Assembly (NCBI GenBank): GCA_041742355.1
Contig: JBGSIV010000299.1
Span: 1-64,000 of the forward strand
DNA from: Candidatus Zixiibacteriota bacterium
GTDB taxonomy: Bacteria; Zixibacteria; MSB-5A5; GN15; FEB-12
DNA: 64,000 nt
Reading direction: 5' to 3'
The position numbers and the translations under genes were made by a program. The notes below the pieces were generated by a model that saw nothing but the letters and a program-made list of their open reading frames with translations, made no database searches and was not told where the DNA came from. Below, piece by piece: positions 36,284-61,807 of the stretch (positions within the stretch are counted from its first letter, which is position 1; the number at the start of each line of letters is the position of its first letter).

Positions 36284-38279
36284 AACCGGCCTCCGCCAGG
36301 CGAGCCATCTCCCCGCGCGTTCTGGCAATGTAATTGCTGATCTCGGGGTTGCCGGGGACCATTCGAAGGGCCTTCTCCCACACCGCAATGGCCTCGGGGA
36401 GGCGATTCTTCCCGTAGTAGTCAATGCCGGACAGCTTGTAGGCCTGGAGCAGGTAGTCCCGGACCGAACGATAGTCCGGCGCCAGCCGATGGGCCAGTTC
36501 CCAGTGTGAGATCGCTCCGCTCAGGTCACCCTGGGCGAAGGCCTGCTGCCCGGCCAGGTAGGATGCCTCGGCCTCTTTCCGTATGGTGGCGCTGAGTTTC
36601 GTTGGAGCAGTTGTTTCTTTCACCGGCGCGACCGCCGCAACGTCGCCGTTCACCTTCTTCATATTCTCCCGGAAGATCGCCGGCCAGCCATGATCCGGGA
36701 ACGACAGACTGACGGAGTCGGCGAACTGCGCAGCGAGAGCATAATTGCCGTCGCCCGCGGCCCTCTCAGCCTCGGCTCTCCAGGCTTCGAATCGCAGCCG
36801 GCTCCCGGCCCCGGAGATGCCCGGATACCGCGATGCGTAGGGCGCGATCGTGCGGTGCAGCGCCCCCGCCTCTTCGATCTTGCCCAGACTGACGAGGGAA
36901 TCAAGCGTGAAGAGCGCATTCGAAACCATGCGTTCCTGTGCGGCGGCATCCTCCAGGGCCTGATCGGTGCGCGCTATCAGATCCAGTGCAGCAGGGGAAG
37001 AGGCGTCCAGCGCCAGGGCCATTCCGGCATAGTGTCGTGCACCCAGGAGATCTCCCTGCCGGAATTTCGCTGTGGCCGAATCGACGAGCTGCCCGAGCTG
37101 ACGGTCGCGGTCTCTCCTCTCCCGCAGATTGTGTGCCTCCGTCGCCAGCGCGGCAACTGCGGCCGTATCACCACCGGACACTCGAGTCAGGAACAGGGCC
37201 CGGTCAAGACTAATCGATGCGTCTGTCAGGGCGCCGGACGCCAGTGCCGCCTGTCCGGCAGCAATCAGGTCGTGAATCATCGCCTCCTGCTGGCCCTTGA
37301 CTCGAGAAGCCATAATCCGGTTGAATTCCTGCTCGCGGCGCTGATCCCGGGCCATCCGGCGATCGTCGGCGGACGAGCCGATAAGCGTCGTGATCGAGAA
37401 CATGTGGACGCTTCCCAGATCCCGGTCGACCAGCGCGTAATCGAACGTCAGGGGACCGGCACGGAAGCCCGCTCCGCACGACAGCTTCCCGGACTCCCAT
37501 CCGCCGCGGAGCGTCAGCATATCCTGGAAGCCGTACTCTGCTCCCACCGAGGTCTGAACATCCGCCCCATCGCTCGCGCCCGCGCTCATGAGAATGCCGG
37601 CACTGTGGTCGCCGTGGTTGGGAGCAAGCTCTATTCGGGTACCGAAGTCGACGCGGAAAGGCAGCTTAACCGCGTCGTCCAGGAGCGTCAGCCGCGGACT
37701 CACCACGTTCCGCAGCACGACGGTCACATCCACCGATGGTGACCATGCAAACGGCGGCGTGATCGTTCGGCCGAACGCGACACTGATCCCGGGGGATGAT
37801 GTCGCCGACCGGTCGGCCAGCGCATGGTGTTCGAAGTGGGTCGCCACACCGAGCCGATAGCTCCCCAGCATCCGGCCGTACGCAGCGTACAGCGCAAGCC
37901 GCTGCTCCGAAATGTACCCGAGCATCAAATTGCGGTCGTCACGTTTCTCGATACCGTCGACTCCAAGGCGGAAGACGCCTAGGCCGAAGGTTCCCATATC
38001 AAGGGTCGGCCAAGCTGCCCCGGCGTACTGGTAGGCGACGTCAGAGTCGAACAGACGGCTGTAGAACCCGGCGGCGGTCAGGTACTGTGCGGAGGCAAGG
38101 TTCGACGGATTCCAATAGGGCGCCGTGGCCGCGTCGGACACGACGACACCGGCGCCGCCGAGAGACAACTCCCGTGCCCCTGCGCCGAGGCTGAACGGGG
38201 AATCACTGCCTCCGTCGTCGGCGCACACGGTCCCGGCCAGCAGGCCGAGCAGCCCGATGAGAAGCCCTGCCATCTTCAT
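36273..38279 (-). CDS. PorV/PorQ-like outer-membrane barrel fused to a C-terminal helical/TPR region
   Basis: Signal peptide; GAGARELSLGGA...YWNPSNL; AEYGF...LRGGW...DYA; TPR-like C-terminus (AIAVWEKALRMVPGN). ATG overlaps the upstream stop. Confidence 0.8.
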   Translation of the reverse strand: MKMAGLLIGLLGLLAGTVCADDGGSDSPFSLGAGARELSLGGAGVVVSDAATAPYWNPSNLASAQYLTAAGFYSRLFDSDVAYQYAGAAWPTLDMGTFGLGVFRLGVDGIEKRDDRNLMLGYISEQRLALYAAYGRMLGSYRLGVATHFEHHALADRSATSSPGISVAFGRTITPPFAWSPSVDVTVVLRNVVSPRLTLLDDAVKLPFRVDFGTRIELAPNHGDHSAGILMSAGASDGADVQTSVGAEYGFQDMLTLRGGWESGKLSCGAGFRAGPLTFDYALVDRDLGSVHMFSITTLIGSSADDRRMARDQRREQEFNRIMASRVKGQQEAMIHDLIAAGQAALASGALTDASISLDRALFLTRVSGGDTAAVAALATEAHNLRERRDRDRQLGQLVDSATAKFRQGDLLGARHYAGMALALDASSPAALDLIARTDQALEDAAAQERMVSNALFTLDSLVSLGKIEEAGALHRTIAPYASRYPGISGAGSRLRFEAWRAEAERAAGDGNYALAAQFADSVSLSFPDHGWPAIFRENMKKVNGDVAAVAPVKETTAPTKLSATIRKEAEASYLAGQQAFAQGDLSGAISHWELAHRLAPDYRSVRDYLLQAYKLSGIDYYGKNRLPEAIAVWEKALRMVPGNPEISNYIARTRGEMARLAEAGYGD

Positions 38280-41200
38280 CGAATCACCGCCACTTTCCGC
38301 TGCAACGACTCTTCCCCTCCCGACAGGTATCGTATCGTCAGCCGGCACAGGTAGGTCCCGGGCAGCACCTCGCGCCCCTTCTGGTTTTCGCCGTACCATT
38401 TGTCGGCCTGATGCTGCCCCGTCTCGCGATATTCATCCACCGCGAGGTCGGTGACCAGATCGCCCGTGATGGTATACAGAGAGATCGACACATGAGCCGG
38501 TTCGGCCAGCATGTAGGTAATTGTTGTCCCGTTGCCGTCAGCAGCGTTGAACGGATTGGGGTAATTTGTAAACGACGCTGCAATGGTCGCCGCCGTGACC
38601 GACAATTCGGTCCCGCGAAGTGGATAGGTCCCCTCTGCAACGAGTGGAAGTACCGCAGTGTGCAGCAGCGGATCCTGAAGCGTCAACGAGAGCGAATCCA
38701 TAAACGCAAACGAGTAATTCGCCGGTGTGGCGGTCGACTTGATATCGCCGGTCAGCCTGAGTTGGTGACTTGCTCCGGCTGTGAGTACGACCGGCTCGGC
38801 CAGGGCGAAGGTCAGCGGCTGATCGGCCGCCACGGGGAATGTCGCTACCGGGGACTCATCGAGCCACACGCTCACACTGGACACCAGATCCGTCAAATCC
38901 GTTGGGATGAACCCGGCCGCTGTGCGCGTGAACACCTGACCGCTCAGCCCCTGCAACTCGACATCCCCCTGCTGCCCCAGCAGGCTGTAGTCGACATTCA
39001 GTTCCATCAGCGGAACTCCGAATTGTCCCTGATGGACTATGATTACCGAATGGTCCTCGGCCGAAAGCGATGGACGCCCCGCCGGCTGAATGATCGCCGC
39101 CGGACCGATTGCCATGGGGAAACTGAGATCACAGGCCGGGTTGGCCACCACGCGGAGGTCGTGCGCTGGATCGGCGAGATCGCTCAATACGAGGCGGTCG
39201 GACGACTCCACGACGAGCACAAGGCTGTCATGGGGTGCCAGCGCTTCGATGTCGGCCACCAGGCGGACCCTGATCGAATCCTCGGCGCTCAACTGCAGGC
39301 CCGTTTCGCCGAAGCGGAAGTACACGGCGCCGTTGACCAGTTCGACGTACGGCTGGTACCGGGCGGGCTCCCCCTCCACCGAGACGCCTATGCGATCTAA
39401 AAACTTCTGCGGGTCGAGCGGCACACCATCGGTATTGAGCAAATTGGTTTTCACCCCGTCGACCTGAGCCGGCGAGCAATCCTCGCAGGGCGGATAGACG
39501 ATGCTGAACTCTACCAGCTGAACTTCCTCCGAGCCGGCCACAATTGATCCCGGCATCATCGCGGTAACGCAAACTGAGGGTGGCAGGGCGGGTTCGTTGA
39601 TATCCACCCACCCGCCTGCTAATGGAAAAGCCGACGCTGTGCTGAGCACGGTGGTATCGGTGACCGCCAGAATGGTTGCGCCCGAGCCTATTTCCCGAAC
39701 CGACAGGTACGAGCTGTCGGCGATGACCAGCCGGAACCCGCTGTTTAGGGCCGATGAACCAACATCACCGATAAGTTGCAGTGTGCGCGCTTCGCCTGGC
39801 CCGAGTGTGAGCGGTGAGCCCAGGTCGATCTGCACGGGAGTGGTGCTCAGGCCAGCGCCTGACACCGTTCCGTATTCGGTCCCGGCCGACCGCACTGCCA
39901 GGAGGCGGAGCACGGTGGAAGCATCGATAGGATTGCTGTCGCTGTCGACAAAAGCGGCGCGGAGCGATGTGATCTGTATGGGCGACGCACCGACCTCGCC
40001 GGGATGCCGAACTGTAATGTCCATGCATACCACGCCGGTTTGCCCCTGGTTGGCCTGGCGGTCGGTCTGTACCGGACCGGCCACAGCGAGGCTGCCCGCG
40101 GGCAGATCCACCCGGCAAATCGCGGTGCTCAGCGGGAAAGTTTCGGCTGATTGCACGGTTGCCGGTGATCCCGCGTTCGCGTCGTGCACGACGAAAGCCT
40201 CGGGTCCATCGATCGACAGAACAAACGTGGAGGCTTCACAGGCAGAGTCAACATCCACCAGCAGTGCCAGCCGGGCGTCAGCGCCCGGAGTGATGATCAC
40301 CGGCGACGGGAAGGTGAGAGTAACCTGGCTGTCAGCCGGGACCGGGAGCGCCATCGCGTAGTTGGAGAATCCGACTCCCAGCGCCATGAGCGAAAACACC
40401 TGATTTGCGGGTCGGCCTGTCCCGGATGCGTCTCTCACCGTTATGCGCACAGCATCCAATTGCAGCGGAGAGACCGATGCCCCGGTGTCCGGATGAGAAA
40501 CGGTAATCGTGAGGGGAAAGACATTTCGCTGGCCCTGTGTTACCGAGGCCGGGGCGGAGTTCAGCAGACTGACGACTGCAGTCTCGGCCCGCTCCAGGAT
40601 GATCGCCGTCGAGGACACGATGTATGCCGATGAATCGGAGACGGCCGGCGCCACCGCTCGCATTCGCCAGGAAACCTGTCCGGTCTGGAGGGAGGTGAAA
40701 TAGCACCTGAGTTCTCCTGTAGCTCCCGGGCTCAACGTCAAGGTACCGCTGCAGCTGTCCAGTCGGACCGCGGCGATAGTTCCCTCCGGAATCACTTCGG
40801 CCGCGAGGCCGGGCACAGTCACGCCGTAGAGGTTCTGCACATTCAAGCGGACTGCAATCGTCTCTCCAACCGAGTACGTCGAACGAATTTGACCGCAGGA
40901 CACCTGAAGCTGCGATGCGTATACGGTCAACGACGCACCTGAGGCCAGCACGGAGTCTCGGGGGCCGTCGTTGTTCGAGGCGTAGGTGCAGCCATTGAGG
41001 GGAATCCAGGTCTGAATAACGGTCCCCGAAGCGGCATCGGCGGCGATATCGGCGGTAATGATGAGGTAGGGGGGAGATTCCAATATCGGTAAGCCAAGGT
41101 AGGCACTCGTCCACAGGCCGGCGGCATAGAAGCATGGGCCGAGCAGGGAGTCTGTTCCCTGCCAGATCGCGTCGCCGTTACGATCAAGCCAGATCTTCAC

Positions 41201-44200
41201 AGATAGCAGGTCTGTCGGTGCACAACTTACCCCGAGCGCGACAGTCTGTAGTGTATCGATCAGATCACCGTTATGAGCCGGACGGAGCGAGACGAGCACC
41301 TGCGACGTATCGCCGGCGCGGACTGTCCGCGAGGCCATCGCGAGAACTTCGTACTGCGACGCCACGGAACCATCGACCACTAATGTCCGGCCGGTCTGGA
41401 CGGGAAGATCGCCGTTGAGGGCGACGGGCGTGGCAAAGGAGAAGTCGGCGGCATCGAAAGCCGCGACGATAAGCGTGTCGGAGTCGGCTGCATCGTCCGC
41501 AATTTCCGCCGTCACGAACAGGTACGAGAGCGATTCGGCCGGCAGCGCTGCCGTAAACCCATCCAGTTGAAGCGTGTCATCGGAGAAACTCCGCGCCGCC
41601 GCGAGCGAGTTCTCGTCGAGGCTGAAGGAACTGGATCGGCCATAGTACAAGCGCACGAGGCCGAGCAGGCGGTCCCGATAATCATCGTCTCCACCCGACA
41701 CGCTCCGGTTGTGGAGACGCAGCCCGCTCAGTTCTTTCTGAACCGTATATCCGTTGTAGAGCGCAAAGGCCAGTATCCGGGTGTTGTTGGCGCCGGGCGC
41801 CACCGCGCCGCTGATGTCACCGAGAGTAACAATGGTAACGCGATCGGGCGGAAGAAGCAGCACGGGATCGTCTGCGCTGACGGCCGCGTCATCGGGGCCA
41901 TTCAGGCCCGACCGATAGGTTACTCCGCCTATTGGAACTGACAGAAAGAGTGTCCCGGCCCGGAAAGATTCCGGAGTGATGCTGGCAGTCACAATGAACT
42001 CGACGCCGCCTGCGAATACCCCTGTTCGCAGGTTGCCGGCCGACCAGTCGGTGCCATTCCATGTCAGTTCGGCACACACTATGTCGTCCGTAGTAAGTCC
42101 GTTGCCCGTCACATCATGCCACAATCGGAGCGTGCTTACCGCGCTTCCGTCACTCAACGACCCCAGATTCATTAACCGGATCGACTGTAGTGTGTCGGCG
42201 GCATACCCATTGCCCGGGAGGCGGAAGCGGAACACGGGGCTGTTGGTCCGCCCTCCGGTAAGGTTCAGGTCGTCAACAGAGGAGACTCCCACCGCCGAAG
42301 CGGGGAAGCCGCTGATTGTAGCGAAGGAGGGATTCACCGCCGGAAATGTCCCCGTTACCTGAATCGGTTCATGGCAGTAGACATGATTTTGTTGGTCGAT
42401 GCCGAACCGAACCTGTGTGCCGGCCCGCGCGAGATTTCTGGACACGGCTGCCAGAACGGTCAATTGGATGTGGCTGTTGCTCCATGGCAGTAGCAGGCCA
42501 GGCGTTCCCACGACCGCCGTCCCGGCCTCCACAGTTGCGACAGCGATCAACGTGTCGGCGGCGCCGATCACCATTGGATTGCCATCGAGGTCGTGATACA
42601 CCATGAGGCTGTCGAACTGCCCATCGAGTTCATCCTGGGTTGCTCCGAGCGGATCCACGGCATAGGAAGTCAGCACGAGGCTGTCGATTTCGGCCGGAGC
42701 ACCACTGTGGTTGACCAATTGCAGTGACAGAAGAGGCGGCGAGACAGCTCCCCAGACTATAGAGGACCCGGGGATCGGCTGCACGGATACCAACATCTCG
42801 CGCTCGCTGAGAATCGTGAGACCGCCTTCGGCGGCAACTTCGTGGTCGAGCGGGCCATCATTACCCGAGGAGACCCCGATGCCGTACTGGGGAATGCCCA
42901 GTTCAAGCGTTGCCCCCCGGGTAGCAAAGCGTGACGCTGTGGCGATTACGAACAGCCTGGTCATCCCGGTGTTCAACGGAACCCGGAGGGCACTGCGACT
43001 CCACCACGCCCCGTGGTTTACAAGAGCCGCGACCCGGTGGTCGCTGCTTCCTCCATCCCAGGTGCCGTCCCCCTCATCAAGGTAGACTGTCAGCGAATCA
43101 AGATCCGCTGCTCCGGCAGTACCGGTATTGGCTACCGCGAGCATGGTGAGGGTGTCGGGGAGGTAGCCATTGCAGGGGATATCAATGGTGAGAATTCGTA
43201 CCGGGCCGTCGGCCCACTCAAGGGTGTCCTGATCGGCGCCGGTGAGAGCAAGCTGCGCGGCAACCATACCATCGATAATACACACACCGTGCGAGTTTAC
43301 CGTATCCGGCCCGTCGGCCGGCGTGGCATCCAGCAGCTGCAGGTCGGCTGAGGGGAGCAGACTGAAGTCGAGTGAATCGCCGTCGTGCGGATGCGTGGCT
43401 ATGTCGGCCACTACCAGCAAAATGGCCCGTTCGCCCGGCGCCAGCGCAAGGGAGCAGGCGCTGATGTGTCGATTGTCGGTTCCCGCAAACGGTGTCGCCA
43501 GCAGCGTATCCCACAGTGACAATTCGAGGTCGAGGTCGCGGTCAAGGTAGATTGCCACCGAATCGAGATTGCTTCCCACCTGTTCCGCTGTCCCGTTCCC
43601 GCGTGACACGTTCCTGACCGCCAGCGAACTAATGGTCTTGGGTTCCTGGAAGTAGTTGCCAACCTCGATCGCGAGGAGCGTCTGATCCTGCTCGCCGGGA
43701 TACACCGAGGTTGTCCCCAGGGCAATCTGATCAATCAGCACTGACTGGATCACAATCAGGCCGGTGGTATCGACGGCGCCGCTGCCGTCAGTGGCGACCG
43801 CAATTCGGCCCATGCCGGGAACATCAGCGGACAGCTCGCCCCGCTCATCAAGGGTGCCGATCATTCCCAGAAGCGACCAGGCAATCTCGCCGGCGTCAGC
43901 GAGGTTCGAATCCGCATCGTAGGCCGTCACGGAGAAACCAATCGTATCATGCAAGACACCGGTAAAACTCTCCGGCGAAATTCGAATTCGGGCAGGCAGT
44001 CCGGGTACCAACGTCAGGATCCCGGAAGTGTCGGCAGTGATCAGATCGAAGCTCGCAGCGATTCTCCCTGTACCAGGTCTCCTGAAATCCAGGGTAACCG
44101 ACGCGCTGACGGCGCCCGGCGATTGCGCTATGGAGTCCTCGCCGATAATCGTCCAGAGAACGGCAACGTCTCCTAGAGACACGCTGTCGCTGCTATACCC

Positions 44201-45535
44201 CCGGCAGTACACTTCTATCTCCTCATCGGTGGAGAGAGCGGTGTCGCCGACAGCTGTCCCGTCGGCCAACTCCACGCGAATGAAACTCAGGAGCGCGGCA
44301 TCCAGCACCGTGATCTGCACGGTTTCCGAGTCAGCCAGAATTCCGTCGGATGCAACAAATGTGACTTCGATTGAACCTACCTGCGAGGAGTTAGGAACAA
44401 ACCAGAAAGTGCCTTGACCGTCGCCGTGGTCAGTGAACGACGCCCCCGGTGGCAGGGGAGCGGCCGACAGCACGGGGACGGCGCCGTCGGCATCGGATGC
44501 ACTGAGCGTGAACTCCAGTGTATCTCCCGCCGCGATCGATTGGGGCCCGATGTCCTCGAGCACGGGGGAGACGTTGGCCGTATAGACCGTGATCGTTACT
44601 ACTTCGGTGTCGGCAAGCTCACCATCGCTGGCAGTGAAGAAGATTTCGTAAATCCCTGCGGCGTTCTGTGAAGCCGAGAAAACGAAATCTCCTGTGCCGT
44701 CGCCGTTATCCTTGAAGGAGGCGTCCTTGGGCAGCGGAGCAGCTTTCAGCACGGGGATGGTTCCGTCGCCGTCCGACGCTGAAACCGTGAACGTGACTTC
44801 TTCACCTTCGGCGATAGTTGCGGAACTGAGCGGCGCAAGGTTGGGTGGCTCGTTCAGGTGCCTCAAGCTGGCGCCCAACTCCACCCACTCCTTGTTCTCG
44901 GTAAAGGCCCAACCTATGCCGACCGACACCGCGCCACTCTTGACGCACCCTTGTCCCCAGTGCTCGTCCCTGACTTCCAGCGACCAGATCCGGGTCGAGC
45001 CAATACTTGGGTCGGGTTCGCCGTTGGAGAGCGACAGAGACGAGGCAAGCACCATGTTGCCCGGGTTGCTGGGTACAACGATACTTCCTGTGTTACTCTT
45101 GCCTGATTTGGTAATGATTGTGTCTACCGGGTGACTCAAGTCAACTCCGGTGAGGGCGACAGCCGACATCGCTGCCTTGACATTGCCGTCGGAAAGCAGC
45201 ACCAGTTCAGCCTCACCAACCGGGGGATTCACATACTGCCACAGCTCAATGCGCGGTTTGCCGATCGCATGGATGACTTTGCCGACCAGCGTGAGCGGGA
45301 GGCCTCCGTACGTGACCGTCTCGGCCGAGTCGTCCTTGTCGGTGTACTGGACGGTCACCAGGAGAAGCATGTCCGGGTCACGGGTCGTATGCATGAGAAC
45401 CAGCGAATCCGTGTCGTCACTGATCGAAATGGCAGTGTCGACGACTACCGGAACTGCGCTGACGATGCATGGCATAATCACCGCCCAAAGCAGCGCGATC
45501 GCCAGGGTGAATGCGGAATTGAGCCTCAATGACAC
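38276..45535 (-). CDS. Large secreted Ig/cadherin-like repeat surface protein (2419 aa) with T9SS-A/FlgD-like C-terminal domain
   Basis: Signal peptide; two N.PP.L...ASD.DG...DNGDGTG cadherin-like units; about 160-aa beta-sandwich repeats; C-terminal NYPNPFN...YTITGDLV...WYGEN...PGTYL...KVAVIR. Confidence 0.85.
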   Translation of the reverse strand: MSLRLNSAFTLAIALLWAVIMPCIVSAVPVVVDTAISISDDTDSLVLMHTTRDPDMLLLVTVQYTDKDDSAETVTYGGLPLTLVGKVIHAIGKPRIELWQYVNPPVGEAELVLLSDGNVKAAMSAVALTGVDLSHPVDTIITKSGKSNTGSIVVPSNPGNMVLASSLSLSNGEPDPSIGSTRIWSLEVRDEHWGQGCVKSGAVSVGIGWAFTENKEWVELGASLRHLNEPPNLAPLSSATIAEGEEVTFTVSASDGDGTIPVLKAAPLPKDASFKDNGDGTGDFVFSASQNAAGIYEIFFTASDGELADTEVVTITVYTANVSPVLEDIGPQSIAAGDTLEFTLSASDADGAVPVLSAAPLPPGASFTDHGDGQGTFWFVPNSSQVGSIEVTFVASDGILADSETVQITVLDAALLSFIRVELADGTAVGDTALSTDEEIEVYCRGYSSDSVSLGDVAVLWTIIGEDSIAQSPGAVSASVTLDFRRPGTGRIAASFDLITADTSGILTLVPGLPARIRISPESFTGVLHDTIGFSVTAYDADSNLADAGEIAWSLLGMIGTLDERGELSADVPGMGRIAVATDGSGAVDTTGLIVIQSVLIDQIALGTTSVYPGEQDQTLLAIEVGNYFQEPKTISSLAVRNVSRGNGTAEQVGSNLDSVAIYLDRDLDLELSLWDTLLATPFAGTDNRHISACSLALAPGERAILLVVADIATHPHDGDSLDFSLLPSADLQLLDATPADGPDTVNSHGVCIIDGMVAAQLALTGADQDTLEWADGPVRILTIDIPCNGYLPDTLTMLAVANTGTAGAADLDSLTVYLDEGDGTWDGGSSDHRVAALVNHGAWWSRSALRVPLNTGMTRLFVIATASRFATRGATLELGIPQYGIGVSSGNDGPLDHEVAAEGGLTILSEREMLVSVQPIPGSSIVWGAVSPPLLSLQLVNHSGAPAEIDSLVLTSYAVDPLGATQDELDGQFDSLMVYHDLDGNPMVIGAADTLIAVATVEAGTAVVGTPGLLLPWSNSHIQLTVLAAVSRNLARAGTQVRFGIDQQNHVYCHEPIQVTGTFPAVNPSFATISGFPASAVGVSSVDDLNLTGGRTNSPVFRFRLPGNGYAADTLQSIRLMNLGSLSDGSAVSTLRLWHDVTGNGLTTDDIVCAELTWNGTDWSAGNLRTGVFAGGVEFIVTASITPESFRAGTLFLSVPIGGVTYRSGLNGPDDAAVSADDPVLLLPPDRVTIVTLGDISGAVAPGANNTRILAFALYNGYTVQKELSGLRLHNRSVSGGDDDYRDRLLGLVRLYYGRSSSFSLDENSLAAARSFSDDTLQLDGFTAALPAESLSYLFVTAEIADDAADSDTLIVAAFDAADFSFATPVALNGDLPVQTGRTLVVDGSVASQYEVLAMASRTVRAGDTSQVLVSLRPAHNGDLIDTLQTVALGVSCAPTDLLSVKIWLDRNGDAIWQGTDSLLGPCFYAAGLWTSAYLGLPILESPPYLIITADIAADAASGTVIQTWIPLNGCTYASNNDGPRDSVLASGASLTVYASQLQVSCGQIRSTYSVGETIAVRLNVQNLYGVTVPGLAAEVIPEGTIAAVRLDSCSGTLTLSPGATGELRCYFTSLQTGQVSWRMRAVAPAVSDSSAYIVSSTAIILERAETAVVSLLNSAPASVTQGQRNVFPLTITVSHPDTGASVSPLQLDAVRITVRDASGTGRPANQVFSLMALGVGFSNYAMALPVPADSQVTLTFPSPVIITPGADARLALLVDVDSACEASTFVLSIDGPEAFVVHDANAGSPATVQSAETFPLSTAICRVDLPAGSLAVAGPVQTDRQANQGQTGVVCMDITVRHPGEVGASPIQITSLRAAFVDSDSNPIDASTVLRLLAVRSAGTEYGTVSGAGLSTTPVQIDLGSPLTLGPGEARTLQLIGDVGSSALNSGFRLVIADSSYLSVREIGSGATILAVTDTTVLSTASAFPLAGGWVDINEPALPPSVCVTAMMPGSIVAGSEEVQLVEFSIVYPPCEDCSPAQVDGVKTNLLNTDGVPLDPQKFLDRIGVSVEGEPARYQPYVELVNGAVYFRFGETGLQLSAEDSIRVRLVADIEALAPHDSLVLVVESSDRLVLSDLADPAHDLRVVANPACDLSFPMAIGPAAIIQPAGRPSLSAEDHSVIIVHQGQFGVPLMELNVDYSLLGQQGDVELQGLSGQVFTRTAAGFIPTDLTDLVSSVSVWLDESPVATFPVAADQPLTFALAEPVVLTAGASHQLRLTGDIKSTATPANYSFAFMDSLSLTLQDPLLHTAVLPLVAEGTYPLRGTELSVTAATIAASFTNYPNPFNAADGNGTTITYMLAEPAHVSISLYTITGDLVTDLAVDEYRETGQHQADKWYGENQKGREVLPGTYLCRLTIRYLSGGEESLQRKVAVIR

Positions 45536-47144: not shown

Positions 47145-47172
47145 TTGACTATATTGGGCCATATAGTATCTT
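47145..47172 (+). promoter_or_regulatory. sigma70-like promoter containing a palindromic operator
   Basis: TTGACT-N16-TATCTT, overlapped by ACTATAT-N6-ATATAGT (47148-47167). Confidence 0.5.
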
Positions 47173-47260: not shown

Positions 47261-49585
47261 ATGCGCTACCTCACTATCGTTCTGGCCCTTGTGTGCCTGT
47301 TCGTCGTGATGTCGTCCGTCTCGGCCGGCACCGTCAAGGACTCTATTGCCTACCAGGGTCGGCTAACCGACGCCTCCGACAACCCGGTCCCCGATGGTCT
47401 GCGGGATCTTGTCCTGACTTTCTGGTCCGATTCGGTCGGCGGTACCCTGCTCTACACCGAAGTCCGAGCGGTGAGCGTCAAGAACGGCCTTTACTCCGCC
47501 TGCATCGGCTGCGACAACGATTCGTTTTTCGATATCTTCACCGACTCCTCGATTTACCTTGAAGTGCAGTTGACCGGCGAGCCGCCCATGACCCCGCGCA
47601 CGCCCATCCGCTACGCGCCCAAGGCGATGATGAGCGCCCGGGTGCGCGGCGACATCTCCACCTCGCCCGACCACCTCACGATCGGTGATCTTGACGGTGA
47701 CGGCGCGTTGGATCTCGTTTCGTCCGCGGATCAGTCCGAGCTCCGGGTAATCAAGAAGCGACCCGGCCGGACCACCTTTTCCAATATAACCCTGCGCGCC
47801 TACCCCGATTCCGTCAGTGACTCACGCGACTGCGATGACGATGACGACGGCGACCCCGAAAGCGCATACGTACAGCGTCTGACGCCGACTACCGCGAGTC
47901 TGGCCATCAAGACCAAGGGGACCAGCGCCCAGCGCCTCGGTATGGGGGGCGACTGCGACGACACCGACGCCTCTGTATATGTCGACGGGGACGACGACGG
48001 CGACGGCATCCCGGAGCGTGACGCCGAACTACGGATCACCCCGACCACGGCCAGCCTTGCGATCAATTCGAAGGGGACCAGCGCCAAACGCCTCCGGGCG
48101 GGCGGTGACTGCGATGACACGGACGCTTCCTTCTACCTTGACTATGACGATGACGGTGATGGCGTATCCGAAACCAGCATGACCTCCACTGTCGAGCGCA
48201 AGTCCGGGTCGATCATTTACCTCGACCGCGAGGGAAACGAGGTGCTGCGCAGCATGATGGGGGTCGATAGCACCCGCTCGATCGTGACGCTCGATCGGGA
48301 TTCCGACGGCGACGGCGTACCGGAAGAGGAAGTAACCGCAAAGATCACCCCGGGCGTCGCCGCCCATGCCATAAACACCAAGGGGACGGGCGCGCAGGGG
48401 GGACGCTCGGTCTTGATCAGCTCCACTACCGACCAGTTTAGCGCTGTCCATTCTTGCGACATCGATGACGATGGCGACGGGCTGTCCGACGCTGATATCT
48501 CCTCGACCGTGACGCCGACCAGTTCCAGCTTCGCCGTCAATTACAATGGAACGGGGGGCTCAGGCAACCGTTCGGCCGGCACTACCGCAGACGATTCCAC
48601 CGTTATCGACTACCTCGACATGGACGATGACGGTGACGGCATTGCCCAGGCGAAGGCAGTGAGCTCCGTGTCCTCCCTGTCCGGCAGCGGCGGCGGTGCG
48701 GCTGCAGCCTCTTATGCCGCGACCGGACGCTGGTATACCGACAGCGACGATGATGGTGTCCCGGAAGGGGACATCGAATCAATCGCCACCCCGCTGACGT
48801 GCAGCGTTGCGATCAAGACCAAAGGGACCGGCGCCGATCCCAATCGGACATCCATTACCCAGTCGACCGATACCAGCCATGTCGGGCTGGCGCTGTCCGG
48901 AATCAGCACCGGCGGCGGTTACAAGCTGTTCTCGGTCACCGGCCAGCCGACTCCCGTGGGCGGGCAGGTGAAGTCCCGGATGGAGGTCGGAGACCTGGGC
49001 AATCCGGCAGATGTTTCCATCGAACATACATGCGATACGTCGGGGGCTGTGATACTCCTCGCGGGGAAGAAGGGCTACGATTACTACCAGTCTTCCAACT
49101 CTCTTGGCGCACGGATGACTATCCGCACCGATGCCGCCGACACGACCATCGATATTGATGGAGACGGCCGGATTGGCATCGGCAAACCGGCCGATGCCGT
49201 CAAGAGAATCGATGTTGATGGCGGAGCATACTGCGACGGCTCAAACTGGGTGAATGCATCCGACGCCAACTCCAAGGAGAACTTCGCACCGGTCGACGGC
49301 CAGGAACTGCTGGAGAAGATCGGCGATCTGGAAATCACGAAGTGGAACTACAAAGGTGATCCGGAAACCGAGCACATCGGGCCGACCGCCCAGGACTTCA
49401 AGGAAACTTTTGGTGTCGGGGCCGACGACCGGTCGATTTCGACCATTGACCCTTCCGGGATTGCCCTCGCCGCGATAAAGGAGCTTTCGAAGCAGAATCA
49501 GGATCTTCGCAGTCAGAACGCCGACCTGCAGAAGCAGCTGGACGAGCTCAAGCGCATGGTCGAGCAACTGGCCGCAAAGAAATAG
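47261..49585 (+). CDS. Secreted fibre-like protein with acidic repeats and C-terminal peptidase S74 (intramolecular chaperone) domain
   Basis: Signal peptide MRYLTIVLAL...VSA; IAYQGRLTD...NGLYS...PRTPI N-domain; GRIGIG...WVNASDANSKEN...WNYK...HIGPTAQDF...AAIKEL, then coiled coil. Confidence 0.85.
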   Translation: MRYLTIVLALVCLFVVMSSVSAGTVKDSIAYQGRLTDASDNPVPDGLRDLVLTFWSDSVGGTLLYTEVRAVSVKNGLYSACIGCDNDSFFDIFTDSSIYLEVQLTGEPPMTPRTPIRYAPKAMMSARVRGDISTSPDHLTIGDLDGDGALDLVSSADQSELRVIKKRPGRTTFSNITLRAYPDSVSDSRDCDDDDDGDPESAYVQRLTPTTASLAIKTKGTSAQRLGMGGDCDDTDASVYVDGDDDGDGIPERDAELRITPTTASLAINSKGTSAKRLRAGGDCDDTDASFYLDYDDDGDGVSETSMTSTVERKSGSIIYLDREGNEVLRSMMGVDSTRSIVTLDRDSDGDGVPEEEVTAKITPGVAAHAINTKGTGAQGGRSVLISSTTDQFSAVHSCDIDDDGDGLSDADISSTVTPTSSSFAVNYNGTGGSGNRSAGTTADDSTVIDYLDMDDDGDGIAQAKAVSSVSSLSGSGGGAAAASYAATGRWYTDSDDDGVPEGDIESIATPLTCSVAIKTKGTGADPNRTSITQSTDTSHVGLALSGISTGGGYKLFSVTGQPTPVGGQVKSRMEVGDLGNPADVSIEHTCDTSGAVILLAGKKGYDYYQSSNSLGARMTIRTDAADTTIDIDGDGRIGIGKPADAVKRIDVDGGAYCDGSNWVNASDANSKENFAPVDGQELLEKIGDLEITKWNYKGDPETEHIGPTAQDFKETFGVGADDRSISTIDPSGIALAAIKELSKQNQDLRSQNADLQKQLDELKRMVEQLAAKK
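47828..48850 (+). repeat. Intragenic tandem repeats of about 52 aa (D-x-D-D-D-G-D-G-x-P-E...TPT...AIxTKGT)
   Basis: Acidic boxes start at 47828, 47984, 48140, 48293, 48458, 48617 and about 48740; the first three are spaced exactly 156 bp. Confidence 0.85.
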
Positions 49586-49598
49586 TCTGACCAAAACG

Positions 49599-49629
49599 AA
49601 AACGGGCAGGCGCGACGCCTGCCCGTTTT
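49599..49629. terminator. Bidirectional terminator between convergent genes
   Basis: AAAACGGGCAGGCG-cga-CGCCTGCCCGTTTT. Confidence 0.85.
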
Positions 49630-58612: not shown

Positions 58613-61600
58613 ATGGTTGACAAAGACCGACCCATGGGCGATTACTGGGCGCTCGACCGGCTCATCGACTCCCTGCAGGAGCGGGCCAAGGAACTTAACT
58701 GCATCTACCGCGTCGGCGCCATCCTCAGCAACCCCGACGAACCGATCGAGCGGGTCTGCCCGCGACTTATCGATGTCATTCCTTCCGGCTACCAGTACCC
58801 CCGCCTCTGCCAGGTCAAGATTATCCTCGAAGGCGACACCTACGCCTCTGCCGACTTCTCCGAGACCCCCTGGCTGCAAACGGCTGAGATCATGGTCCAG
58901 GACGTATCCATCGGCGAACTGACCGTTTGCTACCGCGAAGAGATCCCGGGCGCCAACCACGACACGTTTCTCAAGGACGAGAACAAGCTCCTGCAGACGA
59001 TCGCCGACCGGCTCGGTTATTTCATCTGCCATCAGAAAATGCGCAGCGTAACCCAGGAGTGGCAGTCGGTGAAACGCGAGGGGGGCGGGGTCGGTCGCCA
59101 CGACTGGCAGGTCGTCGTCAAGCTCCTGCGCGAGACCGACCGCGAGCTCTACCTCACGATCGCCCGCAAGATGCTCAACCATCTCTGCTGGAGCGGTATT
59201 ACCGAGGCCGAGGTGCTTCTGCAATCGTTCAGTTCCAACCAGTCGTCGGACTCCGAGGATACTCCCGAACACTGGAATCGCCCGCATCAGCGCAAACCGC
59301 TCGTCATGTCGGCCGCCTTCAGCTCGGCCGCTTTCAAGATCGCCTCGGAACATCTCGATGGCACCGAGATCCTGAAGCTCATCCAGAAGTGGATCCAGGA
59401 AGACAAGCTCAATTTCCTGGTCCAGGTGGTCAATCGCAACCTGTCCCTGCCCGAGGTGGCCGACGCCATCCGGCGCTTCCGCCACCTGACCCAGGACGAG
59501 CCGATGACGCTCTCTTCGAGCATGCGCGGGATACAGGTCTCCCTGATACGTCGTTTCCTCTCCGACCAGCAGCAGTACATCAATGTCGCCAAGAACTACA
59601 TTGAAGTCTCCGATTTCGCCGAACTGATCCAGAACATGATCTTTACGTCCGAAAGCCACGGACGTATCGGCGGCAAGAGCGCCGGATTCTACCTGGCCAA
59701 ACAGATCCTCCTGAAAAAGGCCCGGGAGAACGATCTCCTGGCCAACATTACGATCCCCAAGACCTGGTTCATTACGTCGGATATCCTTCTGCACTTTATG
59801 CACTACAACAACCTCGATGACGTCGTCGAGCAAAAGTACAAGGACATCGACCAGGTCCGCCGTGAGTATCCGCACATCGTGCAGTCGTTCAAGAGCGCCC
59901 GCTTCCCGGCGGATATCGTGAAAGGGCTGTCGATGGCGCTGGATGATTTTGGCGATCGACCGCTCATTGTCCGCAGTTCAAGTCTCCTGGAAGATCGTTT
60001 CGGCGCAGCCTTTTCCGGCAAGTACAAGAGCCTCTTTCTGGCCAACCGCGGCAGCAAGCAGCGCCGCCTTGAAGCGCTTATGGACGCGATCGCCGAGGTC
60101 TACGCCTCGACTTTCGGCCCCGACCCGATTGAGTATCGAGCCGAACGCGAACTGATCGACTTCGCCGAGGAAATGGGCATCATCATTCAGGAGGTCGTCG
60201 GCAGCCACATCGGCAAGTACTTCCTCCCCTCGTTCGCCGGTGTCGCTTTCAGCAACAACGAATTCCGCTGGTCGCCGCGCATCCAGCGCTCGGACGGCCT
60301 CATCCGGCTCGTTCCCGGCCTCGGGACCCGCGCGGTCGACCGTCTCAGCAACGACTACCCGGTGCTCATTGCACCCGGACAGCCCGGCCTCCGCGCTAAT
60401 GTCACGCCCGACGACGTTGTGCGCTATGCCCCCAAATACATCGATGTCATCAACCTCGAAGCCGAAGACTTCGAGACCATTGATCTCCTGGGCTTTCTCC
60501 GCGAAGTCGACTTCCAGGTCCCTTCGGTTCACCAAATGCTCTCCCTCTACCACGAGGGGCATCTGACCCTGCCCGGTATCACGACCGACTTTGGCAGCAC
60601 CACCCCGGTCGCGACGTTCGATGGCCTGATCAGCAGGACGCGTTTCGTCCGGCGCCTGCGCACTATCCTGCAGACCCTTGAAGAGACGCTTGTCACCCCG
60701 GTCGACATCGAATTCGCTTGCGATGGCGACGACTTCTACCTTCTGCAGTGCCGTGCCCAGAGCTACTCTCCAGAAAGCGCCCCGGCTCCGATTCCCAAAG
60801 ACATCCCGATGGAGCAGATCGTTTTCACCGCCCGGCGCTACGTCTCCAATGGCCGGGTTCCCGATGTTACCCACATTGTGTATGTCGATCCGCGCAAGTA
60901 CAACGAGATCGGGGAGCGCGCCGATCTGGTGTCGGTCGGACGGGCCGTGAGCCGCCTGAACAAACTCCTGCCGAAGCGTAAGTTCATCCTCATGGGCCCG
61001 GGGCGATGGGGCCGCCGCGGCGACATCAAGCTCGGCGTCAACGTGACCTACTCCGACATAAACAATTGCGCCGTGCTTATTGAGATTGCCATGCAGCACG
61101 GCCACTACGTCCCCGACCTGTCCTTCGGCACCCACTTTTTCCAGGATCTCGTCGAGGCGAACATCCGCTACCTGCCGCTCTTTCCCGATGACGAGCAGGT
61201 AGTCTTCAGCGAACGGTTCCTGACCCAGCAGCCGAACATGCTTCCGGAACTTCTGCCGGAGTACGGCTCCCTGGCCGATGTTCTCAAAGTCATCGACGTC
61301 CCGAAGTCGACGCGGGGAAGAGTCCTGCGCATCCTCATGAATGCCGATCTCGATGAAGCGGTCGGTCTCCTGGCCGCGCCCAACGAGGAGCTCGATACGC
61401 CCGTCTCCTACGTTGAGGCGCCTGTGCACCCGCGCGAGGACTACTGGCGCTGGCGCGTGCAGATGGCCGAACGTGTCGCCGCCCACGTCGATGCCGACCG
61501 TTTTGGCGTTGCCGGCCTGTACCTCATCGGCAGTGCCAAGAACGCCAACGCCGGCCCCGCCAGCGACATCGACATGCTGGTGCACTTCCGCGGAACGCCC

Positions 61601-61807
61601 GACCAGCTGGAGGCGCTTCGGCTCTGGTTCGAAGGTTGGAGCCACTGCCTCGACGAAATGAACTACATCCGTACCGGCTACCGGAGCGGCGGTTTGCTCG
61701 ATGTCGAGTATGTAGGAGACGACGAGATCGAGCGGAAGATCGGCTACGCCGCGCGCATCAATGCGGTCACCGACCCCGCCCGCCCGCTGGCGATGATGAA
61801 GAAGTGA
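58613..61807 (+). CDS. PEP/pyruvate-binding (PPDK_N, ATP-grasp) domain protein with C-terminal nucleotidyltransferase domain
   Basis: IGGKSAG, PLIVRSSSLLED..GAAFSGKY, MGIIIQEVVG, GLGTRAV, PVDIEFA, LLQCR, GPGRWG, SFGTHFFQDL; C-terminal IGS...SDIDML. Confidence 0.85.
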   Translation: MVDKDRPMGDYWALDRLIDSLQERAKELNCIYRVGAILSNPDEPIERVCPRLIDVIPSGYQYPRLCQVKIILEGDTYASADFSETPWLQTAEIMVQDVSIGELTVCYREEIPGANHDTFLKDENKLLQTIADRLGYFICHQKMRSVTQEWQSVKREGGGVGRHDWQVVVKLLRETDRELYLTIARKMLNHLCWSGITEAEVLLQSFSSNQSSDSEDTPEHWNRPHQRKPLVMSAAFSSAAFKIASEHLDGTEILKLIQKWIQEDKLNFLVQVVNRNLSLPEVADAIRRFRHLTQDEPMTLSSSMRGIQVSLIRRFLSDQQQYINVAKNYIEVSDFAELIQNMIFTSESHGRIGGKSAGFYLAKQILLKKARENDLLANITIPKTWFITSDILLHFMHYNNLDDVVEQKYKDIDQVRREYPHIVQSFKSARFPADIVKGLSMALDDFGDRPLIVRSSSLLEDRFGAAFSGKYKSLFLANRGSKQRRLEALMDAIAEVYASTFGPDPIEYRAERELIDFAEEMGIIIQEVVGSHIGKYFLPSFAGVAFSNNEFRWSPRIQRSDGLIRLVPGLGTRAVDRLSNDYPVLIAPGQPGLRANVTPDDVVRYAPKYIDVINLEAEDFETIDLLGFLREVDFQVPSVHQMLSLYHEGHLTLPGITTDFGSTTPVATFDGLISRTRFVRRLRTILQTLEETLVTPVDIEFACDGDDFYLLQCRAQSYSPESAPAPIPKDIPMEQIVFTARRYVSNGRVPDVTHIVYVDPRKYNEIGERADLVSVGRAVSRLNKLLPKRKFILMGPGRWGRRGDIKLGVNVTYSDINNCAVLIEIAMQHGHYVPDLSFGTHFFQDLVEANIRYLPLFPDDEQVVFSERFLTQQPNMLPELLPEYGSLADVLKVIDVPKSTRGRVLRILMNADLDEAVGLLAAPNEELDTPVSYVEAPVHPREDYWRWRVQMAERVAAHVDADRFGVAGLYLIGSAKNANAGPASDIDMLVHFRGTPDQLEALRLWFEGWSHCLDEMNYIRTGYRSGGLLDVEYVGDDEIERKIGYAARINAVTDPARPLAMMKK

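Follow-up and report, generated by a model that had tools for sequence, protein, structure and literature searches.

The window analysed here is a 64,000-nucleotide stretch of a Candidatus Zixiibacteriota bacterium (positions 1 to 64,000 of contig JBGSIV010000299.1), and translation of its open reading frame (ORF) at 47261-49585 on the forward strand gives a 774-amino-acid fibre protein of the secreted type, named P0001. Two short segments of this protein, word A (residues 165-179; 47753-47797) and word B (residues 311-330; 48191-48250), lie in frame with 131 residues between them, and sequence comparisons support their derivation from a gp19-like tube protein and the replacement of a repeat segment by word B in register. 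An earlier note on this DNA had placed both peptides at these positions, about 130 residues apart in a protein with a signal-peptide-like start, and this description was borne out. Their presence is best explained if foreign fragments were long ago captured in frame by a slot that tolerates them, in an adhesin fibre of predicted trimeric form, and were then kept there by selection, a reading to which we give an even chance of being right.

Resemblance of the two words to tube proteins

Word B was identical in 19 of 20 residues to P0216, a tube protein of 147 amino acids without a signal sequence, and in 20 of 20 to four longer tube-derived proteins. Exact 19-mer matches are expected by chance about 4e-10 times in 2.4e11 residues, and these identities refute chance for word B; word A, which reached at best 11 of 15 against tubes, is weaker when taken alone. 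The gp19 origin proposed in the note was upheld by these matches. The strict pattern of each word occurred a single time in the six reading frames of the genome.

Scoring against gp19 profiles was a check that the note had suggested. Pfam returned a sole match for residues 159-334, to the gp19 tube family PF06841 (E 0.18; 12.1 bits, cut-off 28.2), and none for the two isolated peptides. A profile of 32 close tubes ranked the P0001 ORF first among the 37,649 ORFs of the host genome (E 3.7e-7, runner-up 3.5), a test that is circular because those tubes were found via word B. A second profile, built from 28 distant tubes that were gathered with the first profile and are identical to the words in at most 8 of 14 and 9 of 19 residues, again placed P0001 first with the same two segments (E 0.05, runner-up 0.18).

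The two words correspond to two conserved segments of one subfamily of gp19/Afp1-type tubes of extracellular contractile injection systems (eCIS), and their order is kept. Unlike in the tubes, where about 20 residues separate the segments, 131 residues lie between the words; measured from word to word, the distance is 148 residues in P0001 and 36-37 in 32 of 32 native tubes. The tube-derived content amounts to about 35 of 147 tube residues, and the predicted model of P0001 contains no tube fold. Aligned with the repeats before it, word B falls exactly where these have their TKGT hairpin, in agreement with the note's suggestion that a repeat segment had been replaced; by exact pattern, the TKGT word was absent from all five genomes of other phyla tested.

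The assembly was also checked. Contigs from two samples of one study, X1 (the probable source run) and X2, covered word B without any differing letter, and in run X3 a related strain holds word B in identical context. An assembly chimera was ruled out by the agreement of the X1 and X2 contigs and by the related strain.

Architecture and predicted structure of P0001

The features of the gene, all in the window and on the forward strand unless stated otherwise, are as follows.

47261-49585, P0001 gene, stand-alone, with a methyltransferase gene on one side and a convergent Ser/Thr kinase gene on the other
47261-47326, signal-peptide-like hydrophobic helix (residues 1-22), judged by eye; the model has a helix at residues 2-21
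47327-47635, beta-rich N-terminal domain resembling mosaic adhesive trimer (MAT) fibres; NF053851, E 0.027, 14.2 bits, below the cut-off of 60
47654-47719, FG-GAP-like acidic loop; PF13517, E 0.089, under the cut-off
47753-47797, word A, tube-derived by sequence match (tube profile positions about 50-65); a loop and one strand in the model
47826-48895, repeat shaft, predicted trimeric beta-fibre; seven acidic-loop units, mostly of 51-55 amino acids with one shortened, and four strands per unit
48191-48250, word B, tube-derived by sequence match (tube profile positions about 86-105); predicted beta-hairpin in the hairpin slot of repeat 3
48653-48730, residues 465-490, candidate for a third piece of foreign origin, matching part of a type-III-secretion-cluster protein and located in the corresponding slot of repeat 6
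49067-49090, short recurrent word, also in the tube-derived protein P0306 and in 5 of the 120 relatives listed
49259-49582, S74 intramolecular chaperone/peptidase and C-terminal coiled coil; PF13884, E 3.3e-11, 43.7 bits, cut-off 22
49599-49629, no strand assigned, terminator-like 14-bp perfect inverted repeat between the convergent genes

The Pfam match to S74 covers residues 667-717, with the SDxxxK motif at S667-K672, and the shaft repeats follow each other at 156, 156, 153, 165 and 159 nt (a repeat of about 52 amino acids). When NF053851 was run on 10 relatives, the best score was 35.3 bits (E 9.4e-9), still below the cut-off of 60. The AlphaFold2 model, computed with a 101-row alignment (predicted local distance difference test, pLDDT, 72; predicted template modelling score 0.37; a single-sequence run at pLDDT 33.7 was unusable), showed a beta-meander with four strands per repeat, in which the strands of word B (315-321 and 327-335) run in step with 212-219 and 225-232. 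A trimer prediction for residues 140-460 scored 0.58 (runs 0.58, 0.17 and 0.80), compared to 0.00 for the best of three controls; the runs had at least 51% of contacts in common and a partner pLDDT of at least 54. In a calibration that used two copies, 20 of the 30 solved pairs attained the mark, as did 1 of the 23 single chains. Trimers are textbook knowledge for S74 fibres, and likeness to solved S74 fibres may account for the pass; P0001 is predicted to form a trimeric beta-fibre by a score that supports this without showing it. Within the predicted trimer, inter-chain contacts recur at 214/266/318 and 216-218/268-270/320-322, those of word B being the same as those of the resident hairpins, and many word residues fall at the interface. 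Searches with residues 159-334 against the sequences of the PDB and a search of the ESM Atlas gave no match.

The basic repeat gave weak HATPase_c matches in 4 of 15 proteins (repeat cores of P0056, P0049, P0051 and P0061; E 4e-4 to 0.17), and the fibre repeat may echo the ATP-lid region of histidine kinases, or the likeness may be due to chance. Among the 18 matches to P0001 in its own genome, one was the gene itself, 15 covered the N-terminal domain and two the C-terminal part; NF053851 likewise had 15 matches in this genome, none above the cut-off. The approximately 15 further genes with a MAT-like N-terminal domain, located on contigs C227, C9, C262, C283, C143 (two), C233, C144, C88, C270, C107, C73, C15, C121 and C284, form a Bdellovibrio-like repertoire in an uncultured bacterium, and none contains the tube words.

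Tube proteins as the donor

A degenerate DNA pattern for word B was found at 15 places in 185,579 species genomes. Five of these belong to the fibre family and the other ten encode proteins, tube-like or mosaic, whose N-terminus is hydrophobic as judged by eye, from records titled with nine other groups, ranging from Symbiobacteriaceae to Peribacteria. No tail genes were seen within 1.5 kb of those ten genes in ORF lists read by eye, and in all five genomes tested (one of them, G063, unpublished) the solitary tube-like genes were the only PF06841 matches. A search with one tube-like protein retrieved 96 PF06841 proteins, of which 32 had tube length and none of these a signal-like start, while 54 of the remaining 64 had such a start. 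A 69%-identical relative of the signal-less tube P0222 is encoded in an eCIS cluster (L085) whose other genes include Pvc16, two sheaths, a further two gp19 genes and Phage_base_V. No support for a phage origin was obtained, either in IMG/VR by DNA pattern or in 50,697 phage records. These results identify the donor as an eCIS tube subfamily, either directly or through its secreted derivatives, and the direction from tube to fibre is inferred because the segments sit in their fold context only in the tube.

The set of solitary gp19-like proteins with signal-like starts (54 of 96) is widespread (e.g., L035:1371-1877, L037:966-2045, L042:975-1877 and L048:1129-1665); some of its members have two tube domains, and one member is in a Peribacteria record. 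These would be exported proteins of tube fold that lie outside any tail cluster. Residues 563-581 of P0120 gave a short match to the RNA-binding regulator family NF058537 (E 0.038), and a similar word occurs in several secreted tube-like proteins.

Spread and conservation of the words in the fibre family

Relatives of P0001 numbered 127 by word search (the best 120 of which were listed) and 200 by a full HMMER scan, and the set of 133 used below consists of the 120 listed and the 13 best new HMMER matches. Fibre matches were present in 12 of 61 related genomes, host included, three of them weak; the named taxa among the listed relatives are Zixibacteria, and two word-B loci are titled Ignavibacteria. 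At 6 bits or more, the tube profile detected 37 segments in 31 of the 133 relatives, the other 102 lacking tube pieces at this level; reversed or shuffled versions of the set gave no such segment. The family and the signal-less tubes had 67 exact 7-mers in common, compared to 0 after reversal. Clustering of the flanks gave four classes for word A, and other tube segments stood in single members. In relatives with both words the distance between them was 148, 150, 261 or 281 residues, as compared to 36-37 in tubes, and since it varies no tube surface is rebuilt.

Amino acid identity was higher in the words than in their left and right flanks (word A, 0.76 vs 0.39 and 0.57; word B, 0.87 vs 0.73 and 0.72), while identical residues had identical codons at fractions of 0.39-0.44 in the words and 0.30-0.50 in the flanks, with synonymous sites near saturation; these comparisons comprise 7 and 8 genes with DNA, in pairs that are not independent. 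Both serines of word B are encoded by TCN in nine of nine family genes (two of them nearly identical), as expected from one capture followed by descent, and TCN and AGY are mixed outside the family. Variants of word A share haplotypes with tubes (mean distance 2.19, against 2.67 after column shuffling; P 0.0005), and the sharing of word B was not significant (P 0.08). At the DNA level, word B of the window has 89% identity with genes from other phyla across 57 nt, and G or C occupies 17 of its 19 third positions, compared to 13.4 expected from its gene; in the family, four of seven copies of word B are below expectation. The close pair L010/L059 differs by one dense patch of substitutions at residues of about 434-510, which suggests, from the sequences, the replacement of a segment. 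The gene of P0121 is 86% identical to this region.

Other donors and the wider set of words

A recurrent family word searched in 151 genomes of the phylum of G063 gave eight matches with E of 0.1 or less, six of which were one kind of small protein. This second donor is a protein of 180-240 amino acids without a Pfam match (L101-L106; L108:6826-7419). In L108, the only locus whose surroundings were read, its gene has TPR, sigma-factor, SctI-like (E 0.028) and SctJ (E 4e-18) genes downstream of it, and by this gene context the small protein is likely a secreted subunit of a type III system. A profile made from six of the eight matches, namely five small proteins (one from the unpublished G063) and one mosaic protein, detected 60 segments in 44 of the 133 relatives, at scores of up to 31 bits, while reversed controls reached at most 3.4 bits; these segments are overlapping tiles along the N-terminal part of the donor. 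Residues 465-490 of P0001, a shorter tile than those of some relatives, scored 7.0 bits, in a low-complexity segment that is weak alone. With the mosaic protein left out, 27 exact 7-mers were in common with 33 of the 133 relatives and none after reversal. The last 14 residues of the second donor also end six secreted tube-like proteins (at least 9.0 bits). A further mosaic with a piece of this donor was observed at L100.

As to a third donor, a 19-residue piece in relatives matched DUF1559 (E 3.3e-4). The note's idea of a trace of sequence capture was supported, with foreign fragments from more than one donor. The family contains about 30 more recurrent words; one word of the vocabulary lies inside the N-terminal domain of P0001 (47522-47539), and single words occur in three other long ORFs of the host genome, on C279 (12 of 12 residues), C88 and C20. 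Some words in relatives resemble parts of HU, cold-shock protein, EF-Tu, Hcp and PKD, leads that no tool confirmed: whole-protein scans were unsupportive (for the HU-, cold-shock- and Hcp-like words, scans covered no separate stretches), and the HU label stayed unconfirmed when 10 HU proteins from five genomes were compared. Among short word stretches, Pfam gave one significant match in nine (DUF1559) and NCBIfam none in 12, and a search for shorter proteins with residues 150-250 of P0049 yielded none among 61 candidates.

The host genome as a source of the words

The host genome (G000) is 93.8% complete and gave no match to PF06841 or to the sheath family PF04984, although the control of the tube search also gave no match. 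The note's statement that there is no intact tube fold, and no other tail gene in the window, held in the beta-meander model and in this search. The gp19 gene that it had hoped to compare at the DNA level was not found, nor was a second DNA copy or template of words A and B in this genome. PF06841 was detected in 4 of the 61 related genomes, none of which is among the 12 with a fibre match. The reverse transcriptase family PF00078 had no match in the host genome; it occurred in 3 of the 12 fibre-matching genomes and in 9 of the 49 others, showing no link to the fibre. No credible type-III-cluster donor was found in the host genome, where a single match (E 0.087) contained three stops.

Comparison with known systems

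MAT fibres of Bdellovibrio have a signal peptide and a beta-rich domain of about 130 amino acids, and one subgroup carries S74 with SDxxxK, according to the part of the account available to us (Caulton et al. 2024, PMC10769870). P0001 resembles this subgroup, as far as it is described there, in its signal-peptide-like start, the beta-rich domain behind it, the predicted long beta shaft, the C-terminal S74 with SDxxxK and the many paralogues per genome. It differs in its N-terminal domain, which at 14.2 against 60 bits is related but no member by the NF053851 model, and in its shaft of acidic 52-amino-acid repeats; moreover, the variety described in the available part of PMC10769870 concerns domains and tips, whereas here it consists of 15-30-residue pieces of unrelated genes. 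Unlike gp19 tubes, P0001 is encoded outside any tail or eCIS cluster.

In SPDIR (short-patch double illegitimate recombination), a short genomic patch is replaced by ectopic single-stranded DNA at microhomologies, a process reported as rare, variable and suppressed in the wild type (10.1101/2023.11.22.568220). The short in-frame patch swapped in register in P0001 is like a product of this process in its described form, which does not account for the return of a few identical fragments in different phyla or for their conservation. Diversity-generating retroelements bring about templated change of the surface of binding proteins; they depend on a reverse transcriptase and on a template repeat close by, and their changes fall at adenines. 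P0001 is unlike them in that neither a reverse transcriptase nor a template repeat was found in its genome. No account of such shared fragments was found in the literature searched, subscription journals being mostly outside the search and the supplements of PMC10769870 not covered. The scaffold is of a known kind, a new relative of S74/MAT-like fibres, and none of the systems compared matches its vocabulary of shared fragments.

Origin and maintenance of the words

In the capture explanation, P0001 would be a secreted, S74-chaperoned, trimeric MAT-like beta-fibre (S74 by Pfam match, the trimer by prediction) and, from knowledge of the family, most likely a surface adhesin. Each 52-amino-acid repeat would offer a strand-turn-strand slot that tolerates foreign sequence, as the observed register and the predicted structure suggest, and short in-frame pieces of unrelated genes would have entered such slots several times in the history of the family, as the foreign origin and the several slots in use indicate. 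The route was probably microhomology-guided short-patch recombination with foreign DNA, of the SPDIR kind, and segment exchange may later have spread the pieces among family genes. Words A and B would be two such pieces, from the eCIS tube subfamily or its secreted derivatives, captured long ago and retained under purifying selection as basic hairpins and loops, which would help to build the fibre and also give variety to its binding surface; they would be two entries in a wider vocabulary and no rebuilt tube. The uniform TCN codons and the lack of a link to reverse transcriptase favour old capture.

Several observations weigh against this explanation. A structural brick need not stay 19-20 of 20 identical to a tube of another phylum, and this donor-like conservation is left unexplained. 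Substitutions stayed within the residues of the corresponding tube columns in 34 of 46 cases for word A (null 13.0) and 41 of 51 for word B (null 15.7), against a null that takes no account of conservative changes. Three siblings with the same slot filled are identical to each other in 5-7 of 14 residues, and each is identical to a tube in 12 of 14. Under the clustering used, word B forms a single flank class. No donor DNA of the words was found, and Foldseek against the PDB retrieved generic beta-rich proteins only (TM score of at most 0.23).

The conservation of the words above that of their flanks, and their variation within tube residues only, are not accounted for by a role in structure alone. 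Both properties, with synonymous sites saturated, are what one would look for if epitopes that are conserved in the machines of other microbes were shown on the fibre to act as decoys, as lures or as docking sites for receptors specific to them, and matches of 12 of 14 residues to a tube arose in 0 of 20,000 BLOSUM simulations from each of the three sibling starts; P0001 is of the secreted type, and the three donors supported by tools (eCIS tube, type III secretion and pilin-associated) all belong to machines of the cell surface or of injection. We regard such mimicry as unlikely, though a serious contender, since members hold different overlapping donor tiles in place of a single fixed epitope, the A-to-B distance is not conserved, many word residues lie at the predicted trimer interface, and most relatives (102 of 133) have no tube piece. 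The decoy or assembly poison of the note is its special case and has weak support: the conservation of the words and their restriction to tube-family residues speak for it, but the slot is also filled by non-tube fragments, word B makes the contacts of the resident hairpins in the predicted trimer, and the eCIS donor subfamily has no phage match. Ongoing templated rewriting, in which a resident word would guide its in-frame replacement from environmental DNA or complementary DNA and so track the donor consensus without a function of its own, is a rather improbable alternative. It would account for the word A haplotypes common to tubes, the three siblings each close to a different tube, and the DNA identity and third-position G+C of word B in the window. 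However, word B carries no haplotype signal, the G+C excess is not general, all family copies use one class of serine codon, neither reverse transcriptase nor a template copy was found in the host genome, fibre genomes are not linked to reverse transcriptase, and a null drawn from the tube columns gives matches of 12 of 14 about half the time (0.47-0.52). The same-slot siblings and the column nulls indicate that the words stay in tube sequence space, for which repeated capture and tube-like constraint give the same data.

Chance or convergence, that is, diverged repeat copies that happen to resemble tube motifs, or else an assembly chimera, is very hard to credit. A Pfam score far under the cut-off, an empty PDB sequence search and the modest E of the distant-tube profile are in its favour, but it is countered by the 19-20 of 20 identities and their minute expectation, by the zero matches in reversed and shuffled sets, and by the same context in independent assemblies.

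Implications

The recurrence of the words in distant bacteria points to an undescribed reuse of gene fragments. Tentatively, and with a little less than an even chance, we propose that many phyla use a limited vocabulary of fragments from few donors, set in frame in unrelated secreted proteins and maintained in their amino acids, either through an undescribed process of capture and refreshing or through selection by a widespread system that would recognise the epitopes extracellularly. The donors named so far are the eCIS tube, the type-III-secretion-cluster protein and the DUF1559 pilin-associated protein, possibly with abundant housekeeping proteins. What is new is that at least two and probably three unrelated families have supplied pieces, 15-30 residues long, that are nearly identical in amino acids across phyla and written in host-typical codons. 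If general, this would mean that horizontal transfer also acts on units smaller than a domain, and would imply an unexplained force that keeps fragments true to their donor out of context. One slot with many fillings would also serve as a test system for the origin of binding surfaces and for the display of epitopes of rivals' weapons. Short tube- or secretion-like matches in proteins from metagenomes are also no sure sign of such machines.

Further features of the window

Upstream of the P0001 gene, one promoter-like site (47145-47172) was found against 0.5 expected and was not taken as evidence. On the reverse strand, positions 38276-45535 encode a secreted protein of 2419 amino acids with cadherin-like and Ig repeats and a C-terminal FlgD-like Ig domain, the rest being mostly without a family. 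At 58613-61807, on the forward strand, a protein of 1064 amino acids is encoded in which PPDK_N is fused to a C-terminal nucleotidyltransferase-like domain, and a glutamate dehydrogenase gene adjoins it.

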